Shown here piece after piece: positions 7,080 to 20,193 of a stretch of DNA of 64,000 nt (positions are counted from its first letter, which is position 1; every line of letters starts with the position of its first letter). Made by a program: the position numbers and the translations under genes. Source of the DNA: Candidatus Eiseniibacteriota bacterium (GTDB lineage: Bacteria > Eisenbacteria > RBG-16-71-46); the NCBI GenBank assembly GCA_963707915.1, contig OY970178.1, forward strand, positions 960,001-1,024,000. Direction: 5' to 3'. The notes beneath the pieces were generated by a model. It was not told the origin of the DNA. It did not search any database and saw only the letters and a program-made list of their open reading frames with translations.

Positions 7080-8033
7080 ATGGGATCGAGCATCGAGAGC
7101 CGACGCGAAGCACCGCCGGGCGGGCACGCCGGGCCACGGCCCGTGCTGGCCTGGGGCGCCTGGGCCTCGTGCAGCCTCATCTGGGGCAGCACGTTCCTGT
7201 TCATCAGCCTCGGCAACGGCGCGCTGGCCCCGGTCTGGGCCGCGTCCCTCCGGCTCGCGCTCGCCGCCGCGCTGCTCACGCTGATCGCGCTCGCCCTGCG
7301 GCACCCGTTCCCGCGGGGACCGGCGCTGCGCGCCGCGATGGCCTACGGCTTCCTCCAGTTCGGCGTCAACTTCCCGCTGCTCTACTGGGGCGAGCAGACC
7401 TTCCCCTCGGGCCTCTCGGCCGTGATCTACGCCACCATCCCGCTGAGCACCGCGCTGATGACCGCCGCGCTGGGGATGGAGCGGCTCACGCCGTACCGGC
7501 TCGCCGGCGCGGGCGTGGCGCTGGCGGGGGTGGCCGTGCTCTTCTCGGACCAGCTCGGCGGGGCCGTGGGACTGGTGCCCGGTGTGGCCATCGTCTGCGC
7601 CGCGACCTTCGCGGCCTGGTCGGGCGTGATCCTCAAGCGCGGGCCGCGCCAATCCCCGCTCTGGTCCAACGCGGTGGGCGCCGTCACCGGGCTCGTCGTC
7701 TGCCTGGTGGTGAGCTCCGCCCTCGGCGAGCCGCACCCCTTCCCGGCCCGCTTCGCCGCCTGGTTCCCGGTGCTCTACCTCACCCTGGCCGGCTCGGTCG
7801 GGGCCTTCGTGCTCTTCGCCTGGCTCATCAACCACTGGCCGGTGACGCGGGTGAGCTTCATCGGCGTGGTGAACCCGGTCGTGGCGCTGCTGCTCGGCTG
7901 GCTGGTCCGCGACGAGCACCTCACCCGGGCGAGCCTCGGTGGCTCGGCGCTCATCCTGGTCGGGCTCGTGCTCGGGCTGAGGAGCGGCGGGGCCGGCGCG
8001 GCCCGCTTGCGACCCGCGAACGACGGGCGCTAG
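7080..8033 (+). CDS. EamA/DMT family transporter
   Basis: LIWGSTF start motif, about 10 hydrophobic helices in two repeats, NPVVALLLG. Confidence 0.9.
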   Translation: MGSSIESRREAPPGGHAGPRPVLAWGAWASCSLIWGSTFLFISLGNGALAPVWAASLRLALAAALLTLIALALRHPFPRGPALRAAMAYGFLQFGVNFPLLYWGEQTFPSGLSAVIYATIPLSTALMTAALGMERLTPYRLAGAGVALAGVAVLFSDQLGGAVGLVPGVAIVCAATFAAWSGVILKRGPRQSPLWSNAVGAVTGLVVCLVVSSALGEPHPFPARFAAWFPVLYLTLAGSVGAFVLFAWLINHWPVTRVSFIGVVNPVVALLLGWLVRDEHLTRASLGGSALILVGLVLGLRSGGAGAARLRPANDGR

Positions 8034-17940: not shown

Positions 17941-18690
17941 CTAGGGACCGCCCTGCACGATCCAGCGCACGAGAACGGTGGTCACCACGGCCCAGGACAC
18001 GCTCGCCAGGGAGCCCACGAGGTAGTACTCGGACAGTTCCCGGCCCCCGCCCTCCCGCGACTCGGGTAGCCGGAGGATGGCCTTCGCGGCGATCACGAGT
18101 CCTACGAGGGCTTCGAACCGCAGCAGGATCGCGACGAACACCAGGGTGCGCTCGAGCAGGCCGATCGCGCGCCCCGCGCTCAACAGACCGGGTCGCGGCT
18201 GCTTCAGCAGGTCCTCGAGATGCGGGGTCAGCGGTCCCACGACACGCCCGACGACCACCGCCCCCGCCCACACGCAGGTGATGAACCCGGCCACCAGGGC
18301 GTAGACCCGGACATCCATCCCGGCACGTGCCAGGAGCGCCGGCAGCTCCGCCGCCGCACCGGGGGTCACCCAGACGGAGACCAGGCCGAACGCGGCCAGG
18401 TGAGCGGACTGGTCGATGACCAGGGTCCGGAGGGAGCGGGTCGCGAAGCGGCTCGTCATCCAATCGAGGAGGGCGTGCGCGGCAAGGACCAGCGCGCAGC
18501 CCCACCACAGGACCGGGGTCGGCGGAGTCGTGGCGACGACGATCGCGAGCAGGAGGACCAGGTGGATCGCCAGGTGGAGGGCGAGCGGGCCGGGCCGGTG
18601 CTTCTCCTGCGCCTGCCCGCGGGTCTGCAGGAGGAAGTCCCCGATCAAATGGGCGGTCAGGAACTTCAGGAACGCGAGCAGGAGCGTCAT
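17941..18690 (-). CDS. DUF3307-domain membrane protein
   Basis: AHLIGDF, HLAIH, AHALLD, DQSAH, GRAIGLLER, YYLVGSL. Overlaps the satD stop (ATGA). Confidence 0.85.
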   Translation of the reverse strand: MTLLLAFLKFLTAHLIGDFLLQTRGQAQEKHRPGPLALHLAIHLVLLLAIVVATTPPTPVLWWGCALVLAAHALLDWMTSRFATRSLRTLVIDQSAHLAAFGLVSVWVTPGAAAELPALLARAGMDVRVYALVAGFITCVWAGAVVVGRVVGPLTPHLEDLLKQPRPGLLSAGRAIGLLERTLVFVAILLRFEALVGLVIAAKAILRLPESREGGGRELSEYYLVGSLASVSWAVVTTVLVRWIVQGGP

Positions 18691-19424
18691 CGCGTTCGCC
18701 TTCCCGGGCGCGAAACCCCGGATTCAACCTTGAGGGGTTGAGCGGGCCCGCGGGCCGCGTCGCCCGCGTCGCCCCGGGAGGGCATTCCCCCGCTCGAGGA
18801 CTCCAGCAGGCGCATCGCCCCCAGCGCCTCGTTCCAGGACGCGGCGCGCAGGCGCTTGGAGACGGACTGGAACGTGACGCCGCTGCGGCGGGCGATGTCG
18901 TCCATGCCACGCGTCTCGAGGCGCCCGGCCACCGCTTCCCACTGTGCCGGCGTCCAGCGGTTCATGATCGCGTCCAGCAGGGGCAACATCGAACCCGCCC
19001 AGCGGTCGAACAGGGGATCACCGGTGACCCAGCCCGTCAGGCGGCCGGCCTTCAGCCCTTCGATCGCGGCACGCGCGCGATGGAAGGCCTCCCCCTCGGA
19101 GGCAAACGGACCCTTGGGACTCATCCGGACGATGCGCCCCGCGCCGAGGCCGACCCTCAGCCGCATCCGCCGGCCTTCGCGCCCCGCCAGTTGGGCTCGC
19201 AGGTACGTCAGGATGGTCAGCGCCGGGGCATCGGGGCGCAGGACCGCCTGCATCTCGTCGCCCTTCAGCACCTGGGGACCCAGGCGGAAGTGCCCTCGGT
19301 GGACGTGCAGGGTGCGGTCGATCGCCCTGGCCAGGGCCCGGTCCGCGCCTGCGCGATCCGCCGTGGGGATACTGCGCGAGGACACCAGGTCGGCAATGAA
19401 CACCTGCCATCGAGGGTTCTGCAT
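18687..19424 (-). CDS. SatD-family protein (palm/cyclase-like N-domain plus C-terminal HTH)
   Basis: FIADLVSSR, KGDEMQ, GEAFHRAR, HTH-like MDDIARRSGVTFQSVSKRL. AGGAGGT site upstream. Confidence 0.85.
   Translation of the reverse strand: MQNPRWQVFIADLVSSRSIPTADRAGADRALARAIDRTLHVHRGHFRLGPQVLKGDEMQAVLRPDAPALTILTYLRAQLAGREGRRMRLRVGLGAGRIVRMSPKGPFASEGEAFHRARAAIEGLKAGRLTGWVTGDPLFDRWAGSMLPLLDAIMNRWTPAQWEAVAGRLETRGMDDIARRSGVTFQSVSKRLRAASWNEALGAMRLLESSSGGMPSRGDAGDAARGPAQPLKVESGVSRPGRRTR
18724..18741. repeat. Palindrome copy 3, TCAACC-N6-GGTTGA
   Basis: TCAACC TTGAGG GGTTGA inside the satD 3' end, about 35 bp upstream of the DUF3307 start. Confidence 0.8.
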
Positions 19425-19427
19425 CAC

Positions 19428-19473
19428 TCAACCTCCTAGGGTTGAATCTACATATTCAACCTTCTGGGGCTGA
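19428..19473. promoter_or_regulatory. Two tandem palindromic operator-like sites upstream of satD
   Basis: TCAACC TCCTAG GGTTGA (19428-19445) and TCAACC TTCTGG GGCTGA (19456-19473), 28-bp period. Confidence 0.75.
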
Positions 19474-19501
19474 ATGTGCCACCCTCCGGCGGGCCTGTCA
19501 A
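19473..19501 (-). promoter_or_regulatory. Putative sigma70 promoter of satD-DUF3307
   Basis: Minus strand TTGACA (19501-19496)-N17-CACATT (19478-19473). Confidence 0.55.
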
Positions 19502-19523: not shown

Positions 19524-19553
19524 TTGACGTCCCCGCACCCGCCGGGATAGTCT
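19524..19553 (+). promoter_or_regulatory. Putative sigma70 promoter, leaderless-type, for the BMC gene
   Basis: TTGACG-N18-TAGTCT, ATG 7 nt downstream, no Shine-Dalgarno. Confidence 0.55.
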
Positions 19554-19560
19554 CCGTTTC

Positions 19561-20193
19561 ATGGCCGACGTCACCCTGCGCACCTACGTCTTCCTCGACG
19601 ACCTGCAGCCGCAGCTCGCCGCGTTCGTGGGCACGACCGCCCGGGGCTTCCTGCCCGTGGCCGGCGTCGCCTCGCTGTTCGTCGAGATCGCCCCGGGGCT
19701 GATCATCAACCAGCTCATGGACGTGGCCCTCAAGGCCACGAGCTGCACGCCGGCCATCATGGTGGTCGAGCGCGCGTTCGGCATGCTCGAGATCCACGAG
19801 TGGGACAAGGGCCAGGTGCAGACCGGCGGGCAGGCCGTGCTGGACTACCTGAAGCTCGAGGAGCACGACCGCATGAAGCCCCGCGTGGTCTCCGACCAGG
19901 TCATCCGCTCGGTGGAGCCCTACCACGCGCAGCTGATCAACAAGATCCGCTACGGCGACCAACTGCTCCCCGGCGAGTCGCTGCTGATCCTCGAGAGCGA
20001 GCCCGCCGCCTACATCGCCTTCGCCGCGAACCAGGCCCTGAAGTCCGCGCACGTGAAGCTCATCGACGCGCAGCTCTTCGGCGCCTACGGCCGGCTCTAC
20101 CTGTCGGGCCCGGAAGCCGAGATCGACGCCGCGCGCGACGGCGCCCTGCGCAGCCTCGAGACCATCAAGGGCCGGGACCCGGCGAAGGGCTGA
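19561..20193 (+). CDS. Tandem BMC-domain microcompartment shell protein (BMC-T, CsoS1D/CcmP-like)
   Basis: LRTYVFLDDLQPQLA, VEIAPG, DVALKAT, VVERAFGMLEIH, ANQALKSA, GAYGRLYLSG. Confidence 0.9.
   Translation: MADVTLRTYVFLDDLQPQLAAFVGTTARGFLPVAGVASLFVEIAPGLIINQLMDVALKATSCTPAIMVVERAFGMLEIHEWDKGQVQTGGQAVLDYLKLEEHDRMKPRVVSDQVIRSVEPYHAQLINKIRYGDQLLPGESLLILESEPAAYIAFAANQALKSAHVKLIDAQLFGAYGRLYLSGPEAEIDAARDGALRSLETIKGRDPAKG

Follow-up and report, generated by a model that had tools for sequence, protein, structure and literature searches.

The satD-DUF3307 gene pair probably forms a self-contained, autoregulated operon, in which SatD would serve as a ligand-sensing autorepressor. Most likely, SatD switches off both genes via paired palindromes placed in front of each of them. 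The sites, their conservation, their co-change with SatD, the protein folds and the predicted SatD dimer were established by computation.

Layout of the operon and its palindromes

Both genes are located on the minus strand of the window (the whole 64,000-nt stretch of DNA that was analysed). satD (18687-19424) encodes a protein of 245 aa and starts with the ATG at 19424, with a GTG at 19427 also in frame. Its stop codon TGA overlaps the ATG start of the next gene in the sequence ATGA (18687-18690), and this translationally coupled gene (17941-18690) encodes a DUF3307 membrane protein of 249 aa. The original prediction had placed a TTGACA-N17-CACATT promoter in front of satD. Both hexamers can indeed be read from the sequence with a spacer of 17 nt: the -35 hexamer TTGACA at 19496-19501, with TTGAC at a matching distance in relatives, and the weak -10 hexamer CACATT at 19473-19478, for which relatives mostly possess CATATT. 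However, a consensus promoter scan did not call this promoter, because CACATT fits only 3 of the 6 consensus positions, and we regard it as a putative promoter on the grounds of its conservation among relatives. The same scan called only a divergent promoter on the plus strand (19524-19551) and found no terminators. Among the sequencing data sets listed for this stretch there is no RNA set, and the DNA sets share at most 0.10 of the sampled words.

Four 20-bp palindromic elements with a 7-6-7 architecture are arranged in two pairs on the minus strand, and each pair ends just ahead of a start codon. In the upstream pair, site 1 (site A; TTCAGCC-CCAGAA-GGTTGAA, 19455-19474) begins within the satD -10 hexamer and spans the predicted transcription start, while site 2 (site B; TTCAACC-CTAGGA-GGTTGAG, 19427-19446) is offset by 28 bp from site 1 and includes AGGAGG (19432-19437), the Shine-Dalgarno sequence of satD. 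In the junction pair, site 3 (site A; CTCAACC-CCTCAA-GGTTGAA, 18723-18742) lies in the 3′ coding region of satD, and the degenerate site 4 (site B; TTCGCGC-CCGGGA-AGGCGAA, 18695-18714) begins 28 bp further on and shares sequence with GGGAAGG, the ribosome-binding site of DUF3307. Re-scanning of the window recovered the three copies recognised in the original prediction (18724-18741, 19428-19445 and 19456-19473), and they are located as described there, in the satD 3′ end, over the satD Shine-Dalgarno sequence and at the -10 hexamer, respectively; the layout given at that time was incomplete, since it lacked the degenerate fourth site.

The pattern TCAACC-N6-GG(T/C)TGA matches three times in the window compared with 0.02 expected matches, and this count was reached in none of 100 shuffles. 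Genome-wide (3,623,634 bp), there are two exact occurrences of TCAACC-N6-GGTTGA, both within the satD-DUF3307 operon. When up to one mismatch was allowed, 12 places were found, including the third copy, versus 4 for a reversed control pattern, whereas a relaxed scan of the genome revealed no regulon (7 places versus 10 for the control). The expectation that the motif would be rare genome-wide was thus borne out, and in this genome the palindromes are specific to the satD-DUF3307 operon.

Paired sites across the satD family

The arrangement of four half-sites scored above the 99th percentile of 1830 dinucleotide shuffles in 47 of 61 distinct satD upstream regions, a count of non-independent events, as the loci are related to one another. 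Observed scores reached 28/28, compared with 23 for the best shuffle, on a half-site consensus that was built from the same upstream sites, and only 3 of 61 coding controls passed the threshold. The 14 regions below it include four loci with visible sites at another spacing (L015, L094, L096 and L097) and one decayed copy (L018). Under a stricter criterion, with pairing at 6 of 7 arm positions demanded of both sites, 14 of 61 loci had pairs, compared with a mean of 0.09 in shuffles. Because half-sites vary at positions 4-5 and N5 spacers occur in some clades, the four-half-site score was preferred. The half-site reads TTC[AG][AC]CC here and T[TGA]CACC[CT] family-wide, in a sample that is biased to relatives of this clade because the metagenome loci were gathered with a closer alignment. 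Within a pair, the sites start 28-29 bp apart, which corresponds to a non-integral number of helical turns and counts against the operator reading.

At the satD/DUF3307 junction, 31 of 41 loci have a site that agrees with their own half-site in at least 11 of 14 positions, and 24 of 41 have a pair with a distance of 27-29 bp, while only 8 other hits occur in the 114,075 nt scanned. Paired palindromes therefore recur at other satD loci, both upstream and at the junction, with the half-site proper to each locus.

No separate promoter accompanies the junction pair, which ends 0-18 nt (mostly 2-5 nt) before the DUF3307 start, like the upstream pair before satD, and such start-codon-linked spacing is not expected for a purely DNA-level operator.

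The position of the upstream pair relative to the promoter supports a repressor-type arrangement, as far as the promoter elements are correctly predicted. Of 47 related loci, 28 have TTGAC 27-29 nt ahead of the point where site A begins, and four others have it 12-15 nt ahead, which would place site A between -35 and -10. Furthermore, the half-site varies together with the recognition helix of SatD among 45 loci. The helix FQSVSKRL is accompanied by the half-site TTC[AG][AC]CC, HQNVTKRL by TGCACCC, YQNVQKRL by TACACCT, [YA]QNVEKRC by ATCACCC, and IRAVNKNI by GGAACC. The arm sequence persists even where protein identity has fallen to 30%, and in L018, a decayed copy, damage has hit promoter, sites and gene alike. 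The kept position, the co-change of half-site and helix and the restriction to this operon support the suggestion, already made in the original prediction, that the palindromes act as operators for a protein, probably SatD.

It is very improbable that the palindromes are instead bound by another, unlinked host factor, or that they are functionless relics of a duplicated segment. The link between SatD and the sites comes from sequence comparison, and the pair before DUF3307 could be a copy of the pair before satD, both of which would fit such an explanation. However, the sites travel with satD across clades and contexts, change together with its recognition helix and are absent from the rest of the genome, and the joint decay of promoter, sites and gene in L018 points in the same direction.

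A second alternative, which we consider rather unlikely, is that the palindromes work mainly in the mRNA. Here, hairpin B (segments 3:4) would hide the ribosome-binding site of each cistron and would be opened by an alternative 2:3 pairing or by the ribosome terminating on satD; in that case the elements would serve in translational attenuation or coupling, with SatD either not binding them or binding them as RNA. This is in line with the 22 loci listed, in which both pairs end 0-18 nt (mostly 2-5 nt) before the start codon and site B holds the ribosome-binding site, and with six loci (L008, L010, L021, L025, L033 and L040) in which the 3′ arm of junction site A includes the TGA stop codon of satD. 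Mismatches in upstream site B, read on the sense strand, comprise 26 G-U versus 10 A-C pairs, the arms TCACC/GGTGA resemble the 16S anti-Shine-Dalgarno and extended Shine-Dalgarno sequences, and the window RNA from the predicted transcription start can adopt either the 2:3 or the 3:4 hairpin. In contrast, upstream site A is equally symmetric, with pairing at 217 of 259 arm positions, even though its 5′ arm is located within or ahead of the -10 hexamer, and its mismatches show the opposite bias (20 A-C versus 6 G-U). In the four loci with site A between -35 and -10, the 5′ arm could not be transcribed at all. Deviations within a locus are one-sided, with 103 broken and 43 G-U pairs against 5 compensatory changes. 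Moreover, the window RNA folds no better than shuffles (z of -1.27 from the transcription start and -1.0 at the junction), the junction palindromes are missing from the minimum-energy fold, and the arm sequence itself is conserved beyond pairing and tracks the helix of the HTH motif.

Slightly less unlikely, though still doubtful, is a dual role, in which the 20-bp element would be both a DNA repressor site and an mRNA hairpin hiding the ribosome-binding site, and SatD would be ligand-gated and possibly catalytic. If true, the operator would also mimic a ribosome-binding site, and its presence before both cistrons would mean that a metal-dependent membrane protein of novel fold is controlled at two levels.

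SatD fold, predicted dimer and proposed mode of action

SatD matches the Pfam family SatD (PF16264) over residues 10-196 with an E-value of 2.4e-9 and 37.6 bits (cut-off 29), which makes it a distant member of this family. A palm domain of the cyclase/GGDEF type (residues 1-135) is followed by a helical HTH domain (residues 137-211) and a disordered tail. A Foldseek search of the PDB yielded 58 matches at E ≤ 1e-3, led by cyclase domains, with an E-value of 3.8e-5 and a TM-score of 0.56 on the target for class III cyclases. The match to the Pycsar cUMP synthase 7r65 has an E-value of 6.8e-5. In VIA, the Z-scores to palm structures range from 8.1 to 11.2, including 9.1 for the uridylate cyclase 8jsz. 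All 50 matches listed in the fold comparison are palm-domain cyclases or their relatives. In addition, a SatD profile matches Rv1900c (1ybt) with an E-value of 5.9e-4, whereby the DIVGS and GD metal motifs are aligned. Among 114 SatD sequences, the putative metal-site residue D56 is the same in all and D12 is kept in at least 90%, while S16, G55, E57, Q59, G111 and R118 are invariant or nearly so. With regard to the transition-state Asn/Arg and base-specifying positions of class III cyclases, H115 aligns with a His of Rv1900c, and R118 is invariant in a 25-sequence alignment but has no fixed register. The acidic, cyclase-like palm proposed for the N-terminal part of SatD is thus recovered at the fold level, and the proposed C-terminal HTH is matched by HTH structures in the profile search.

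At the sequence level, the relationship is more distant. A profile of the N-domain only (25 sequences) found no cyclase in the PDB, and only the deeper profile did. At E ≤ 10, Pfam returned SatD and a weak LacI HTH match, with no cyclase or GGDEF (PF00990) model, and NCBIfam gave no matches for either SatD or the DUF3307 protein. SatD cannot be counted as a GGDEF protein, as its motif is KGDEMQ (GDEFQ in the family consensus) and the fold similarity does not exceed a Z-score of 9.9. SatD therefore has its fold in common with class III cyclase domains (Rv1625c 7yz9, Rv1900c 1ybt, Ma1120 4wp8 and bPAC 5mbg) and GGDEF domains, but differs from them by the missing Pfam match and by the fusion of the palm to an HTH.

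The SatD homodimer was predicted with a score of 0.80, compared with 0.24 for the best control. In calibration, 20 of 30 proteins with structures solved as pairs of one chain attained the mark used, compared with 1 of 23 single-chain structures. Contact overlap between the runs is no lower than 69%, and the partner pLDDT is 82 or higher. The predicted interface consists of residues 137-156 and 196-215 of the helical domain and does not use the palm domain, while in class III cyclases the active sites are situated at a head-to-tail interface. A predicted dimeric HTH protein is thus found together with palindromes over its own promoter, at -10/+1, as in an autorepressor.

We infer that SatD is the binder, that repression is the effect and that a ligand exists. 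In the proposed mechanism, SatD would dimerise through its C-terminal helical domain and thereby display two HTH motifs, with one dimer occupying each 20-bp palindrome. The upstream pair would extend over the -10 hexamer, the start of transcription and the first transcribed stretch with the ribosome-binding site of satD, and the junction pair would sit over the ribosome-binding site of DUF3307. SatD bound to the upstream pair would prevent initiation at the satD promoter, and at the junction it may form a roadblock or hold one end of a ~730-bp loop. As a result of promoter block and roadblock or loop, both genes, and especially the membrane protein, would be held at a low level. Release of SatD from the DNA would then follow when the cyclase-like palm binds or turns over a small ligand.

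Repression of the lac, gal and deo type makes use of an additional operator that lies within or beyond the first gene. The SatD system is similar to these autorepressors in its predicted dimeric HTH, its putative palindromic operators at -10/+1 and another set of putative operators located several hundred bp downstream in the operon. It differs from them in the nucleotide-cyclase fold of its sensor domain, in the pairing of the sites 28-29 bp apart with a ribosome-binding site embedded in each pair, and in the location of the downstream pair partly in the regulator's own coding sequence.

The DUF3307 protein and the operon context

The second protein matches DUF3307 (PF11750) over residues 7-106 with an E-value of 9.4e-12 and 45.5 bits (cut-off 23). 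Residues 110-249 have no Pfam match, yet this C-terminal half is conserved. The model is an all-helical membrane protein, in which His, Asp and Gln residues lie inside the helices, and seven of them are invariant (H14, D18, H39, H72, D93, Q94 and H97), so that the membrane partner with His/Asp clusters was correctly anticipated. We found no known fold for this model: Foldseek gave no PDB match at E ≤ 1e-3, the best Z-score in the wide VIA search was 8.7 for partial helical stretches, which is the noise range for helical bundles, and the named clusters of the Atlas contained no usable match. The protein may function as a metal-dependent membrane enzyme or transporter.

The original prediction had further compared the pair with synthase-plus-membrane-effector systems of a toxin or defence type. 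It appears quite improbable that SatD is an active nucleotide cyclase or synthase with DUF3307 as its membrane effector in an autoregulated, Pycsar/CBASS-like toxin or anti-phage module. Such a module would be compatible with the palm fold common to class III cyclases, including 7r65 and 8jsz, with the near-invariance of D12, D56 and the other conserved palm residues, and with the patchy distribution of the gene pair, which is present in 23 of 151 genomes of the phylum and in none of the 7 other genomes of the genus. Like Pycsar (PycC cyclase and PycTM effector), the locus places a class III-like fold beside a multi-pass membrane protein. However, PADLOC detected no family at E ≤ 1 for either protein, and the operon neighbours in the window (an ABC-F ATPase, M29-like peptidases and a BMC-like protein) include no defence genes. 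The all-helical DUF3307 model contains no cNMP-binding or other soluble nucleotide-sensing domain, and Pfam finds only DUF3307 in it; for SatD, the lack of any cyclase or GGDEF model in Pfam and a predicted dimer that avoids the head-to-tail cyclase interface also argue against a synthase. Unlike Pycsar, SatD carries an HTH and has its own putative operators, a combination that suits a one-component regulator. Combined, the analysis lends no support to a defence or toxin annotation and argues that the cyclase fold serves as the sensor of a transcription factor rather than as a second-messenger synthase.

Both proteins pass their Pfam cut-offs, and gene order and strand are those usual for the SatD/DUF3307 pair, which is reportedly named after satD-satE of the Streptococcus mutans sat operon, said to have been described by Kremer and colleagues in 2001. 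No function, operator or ligand was found for this family in the searchable literature. For this widespread pair, the analysis supplies a testable regulatory logic, made up of a defined candidate operator, a rule relating recognition helix to half-site, and a four-site layout with one pair in the satD coding sequence. Among 68 distinct loci with at least 400 nt downstream, 64 have DUF3307 after satD in the same orientation, and one representative search returned 986 cluster representatives of the SatD family at E ≤ 1e-3.

Two palindrome pairs in the satD-DUF3307 operon

The original observation of three copies of a palindromic motif around satD was confirmed, and a further site brings the total to four, arranged as two pairs. 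Reading the minus strand, a -35 hexamer TTGACA (19496-19501) is separated by a 17-nt spacer from the -10 hexamer CACATT (19473-19478). Site 1 (TTCAGCC-CCAGAA-GGTTGAA, 19455-19474, minus strand) shares bases with the -10 hexamer, and site 2 (TTCAACC-CTAGGA-GGTTGAG, 19427-19446, minus strand), which follows after an 8-nt gap, contains AGGAGG. The satD start at ATG 19424 (minus strand) gives the 245-aa protein listed in the database as P0001; GTG 19427 is also in frame. The third copy, site 3 (CTCAACC-CCTCAA-GGTTGAA, 18723-18742, minus strand), lies within the last satD codons, ahead of the ATGA (18687-18690, minus strand) shared by the stop codon of satD and the start codon of DUF3307. In Pfam, both proteins exceeded the curated cut-offs, one in SatD and the other in DUF3307.

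In relatives, this junction contains two palindromes, not one, with the same start-to-start distance of 28 bp as in the upstream pair. The window was therefore re-read, and a degenerate site 4 (TTCGCGC-CCGGGA-AGGCGAA, 18695-18714, minus strand) was recognised over the DUF3307 ribosome-binding site GGGAAGG, starting exactly 28 bp past the start of site 3. Each of the two cistrons is therefore preceded by site A, 8 nt and a site B that includes the ribosome-binding site.

Against an expectation of 0.02, the window has 3 places matching TCAACC-N6-GGYTGA, a count that 0 of 100 shuffles reached. A scan of the whole 3.62-Mb genome confined the exact palindrome to the operon (2 of 2 places), and with up to one mismatch it was found at 12 places versus 4 for the reversed control. 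The relaxed TTCNNCC-N6-GGNNGAA was not enriched in the genome scan (7 places versus 10 for the control), and therefore no regulon is seen outside the operon. The sole further window match at up to two mismatches (7828-7845, TCAACCACTGGCCGGTGA) is covered by a chance expectation of 0.74. Outside the window, at G000:C1:119122-119141 of the source genome, a perfect palindrome TTCACCCG-CATT-CGGGTGAA fits the family-type half-site.

Conservation of the layout and nature of the sites

The satD loci were collected from relatives of the source genome (match in 11/61 genomes, with no SatD match in the 7 other genomes of the same genus), from species-representative genomes (two loci) and from metagenomes (80 loci). 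As judged by an HMM made from DUF3307 matches in this analysis, 64 of the 68 distinct loci with 400 nt or more of downstream sequence encode DUF3307 behind satD on the same strand; L005, L018, L085 and L093 are the exceptions.

The upstream regions share the two-palindrome layout, while the half-sites are clade-specific: TTC[AG][AC]CC in the source-genome clade, TGCACCC, TACACCT and ATCACCC in clades whose SatD is 30-35% identical, and GGAACC with an N5 spacer in another. A pair score that rewards four similar half-sites arranged as 7-6-7 / 27-29 bp exceeded its threshold, set at the 99th percentile of 1830 dinucleotide shuffles, for 47/61 distinct upstream regions versus 3/61 coding controls, and some of the 14 sub-threshold regions show visible sites at other spacing. 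Under a stricter test of perfect or near-perfect arm pairing, at least one palindrome was present in 50/61 regions (shuffle mean 12.6) and a pair in 14/61 (shuffle mean 0.09). When each junction was searched with the locus's own half-site, a site was found in 31/41 loci and a pair in 24/41, with just 8 other matches across the remaining 114 kb.

Palindromes before start codons could act as RNA structures, and some features point to this. The upstream and junction pairs stop 0-18 nt, mostly 2-5, short of the start codon, and mismatches in upstream site B favour G-U over A-C (26 versus 10). The arms also resemble anti-SD and SD sequences. However, TTGAC lies 27-29 nt ahead of site A in 28/47 loci, so that the 5′ arm of site A begins in the -10 and is untranscribed, and in 4 loci site A sits between -35 and -10. 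Site A is nonetheless as symmetric as the other sites (217/259 arm positions paired), with mismatches favouring A-C over G-U (20 versus 6). Of the departures from the half-site consensus of a locus, 146 are one-sided and 5 compensatory. The RNA folds of the window do not exceed shuffles (leader z -1.27, junction z -1.0), and the minimum-energy structure of the junction lacks the palindromes. Furthermore, the arm sequence itself is kept across clades and follows the SatD recognition helix, with an own half-site for each of FQSVSKRL, HQNVTKRL, YQNVQKRL, xQNVEKRC and IRAVNKNI; this association is confounded by phylogeny, yet it is as predicted for a cognate regulator-operator pair. Judged from these sequence patterns, the weight of evidence favours protein-bound DNA sites over RNA structures, although the mRNA hairpin formed by site B over the ribosome-binding site may have a secondary role in translation. 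The proposal that the sites are operators of an autoregulated operon is well supported by the comparison of loci.

Among close SatD homologues (alignment A1), 8/21 terminate in S-x-x-[RK]-G. Junction palindrome A encodes this tail, as in L010:2184-2203, where TTCGCCGTCCAGAGGCTGAA encodes SPSRG and a stop, so the conserved peptide end may reflect a DNA constraint.

Predicted structures of SatD and DUF3307

An AlphaFold model of SatD from the broad 114-sequence alignment A2 (mean pLDDT 90, pTM 0.84) places an alpha/beta domain at residues 1-135 and a helical domain at 137-211, followed by a disordered tail. A Foldseek search of the PDB gave 58 matches at E <= 1e-3, among which class III cyclase domains ranked first (best 7yz9, E 3.8e-5). 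With an independent aligner, all 50 matches listed (Z 8.1-11.2) were cyclase, GGDEF, Cas10-palm, mCpol or GTP cyclohydrolase III domains. The A2 profile matched Rv1900c (E 5.9e-4) and Ma1120 (E 1.4e-3) with the two metal-aspartate motifs aligned, and its C-terminal part matched HTH proteins, in agreement with the cyclase-like N-domain and C-terminal HTH originally predicted. A Pfam search of SatD returned no cyclase or GGDEF model. Since D56, S16 and G111 are invariant and D12, G55, Q59, G94, G96, F114 and W157 at least 90% conserved in A2, the pocket looks functional.

The SatD homodimer prediction scored 0.80 versus 0.24 for the best control, and among proteins of solved structure the dimer mark was reached by 20/30 of those with paired copies of one chain and by 1/23 of those with a single chain; at least 69% of contacts were common to runs, with partner pLDDT of at least 82. 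The predicted interface involves helices 137-156 and 196-215 of the helical domain rather than the palm, which would suit a palindromic operator. As far as a model can show, this interface also argues against a canonical cyclase dimer.

In the database protein P0064 (290 aa, from a contig of 1165 nt), a SatD fragment of 89% identity is fused to a PF01066 phosphatidyltransferase domain, probably through a gene-call or assembly artefact.

The DUF3307 model is all-helical (pLDDT 92.8). In the 36-sequence alignment A3, H14, D18, Q22, H39, H72, D93, Q94 and H97 of the first four helices are invariant, as are G168, G173, I176, G177, E180, R181, G197, A201, K203, R207, E221, Y222, G226 and S230 of the second half. 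Solved structures, Atlas clusters, NCBIfam models and PADLOC models gave no match. From the His/Asp pattern alone, the most economical guess is a metal-dependent membrane enzyme or transporter.

Occurrence and decay of the gene pair

The suggested toxin or defence role is unsupported: the PADLOC search matched neither SatD nor DUF3307, DUF3307 carries no nucleotide-sensing domain, and the operon neighbours (an ABC-F ATPase, M29-like peptidases and a weak BMC-domain protein) are not of defence type. Literature listings on SatD (PF16264), SatE and DUF3307 (PF11750) included no study of function or operators. A 2001 paper by Kremer et al. concerns the sat operon.

The pair is patchy (23/151 genomes of the phylum, 0/14 control genomes) and is decaying in the two closest relatives. 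In L005 (3600-3740), from a relative 78% identical, a deletion has brought the satD 3′ region next to the final ~30 codons of DUF3307, removing the junction sites and most of the membrane gene but leaving the promoter pair intact, though an assembly error could also produce this picture. L018 (480-1300), the closest metagenome relative (86% identity over residues 1-173), has a TGA at satD codon 6, a -35 that now reads CTGACA, one merged palindrome instead of a pair, and a truncated 3′ end with unrelated sequence beyond residue 173 and no DUF3307 behind. This decay shows that the pair is dispensable; it does not show that it is selfish.

The divergent neighbour of satD (19561-20193, plus strand, 210 aa) has a weak BMC-domain match (E 1.8e-4, below cut-off) and its own promoter-like site at 19524-19551. 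The start of the same gene lies upstream of satD in L008, L009 and L010.
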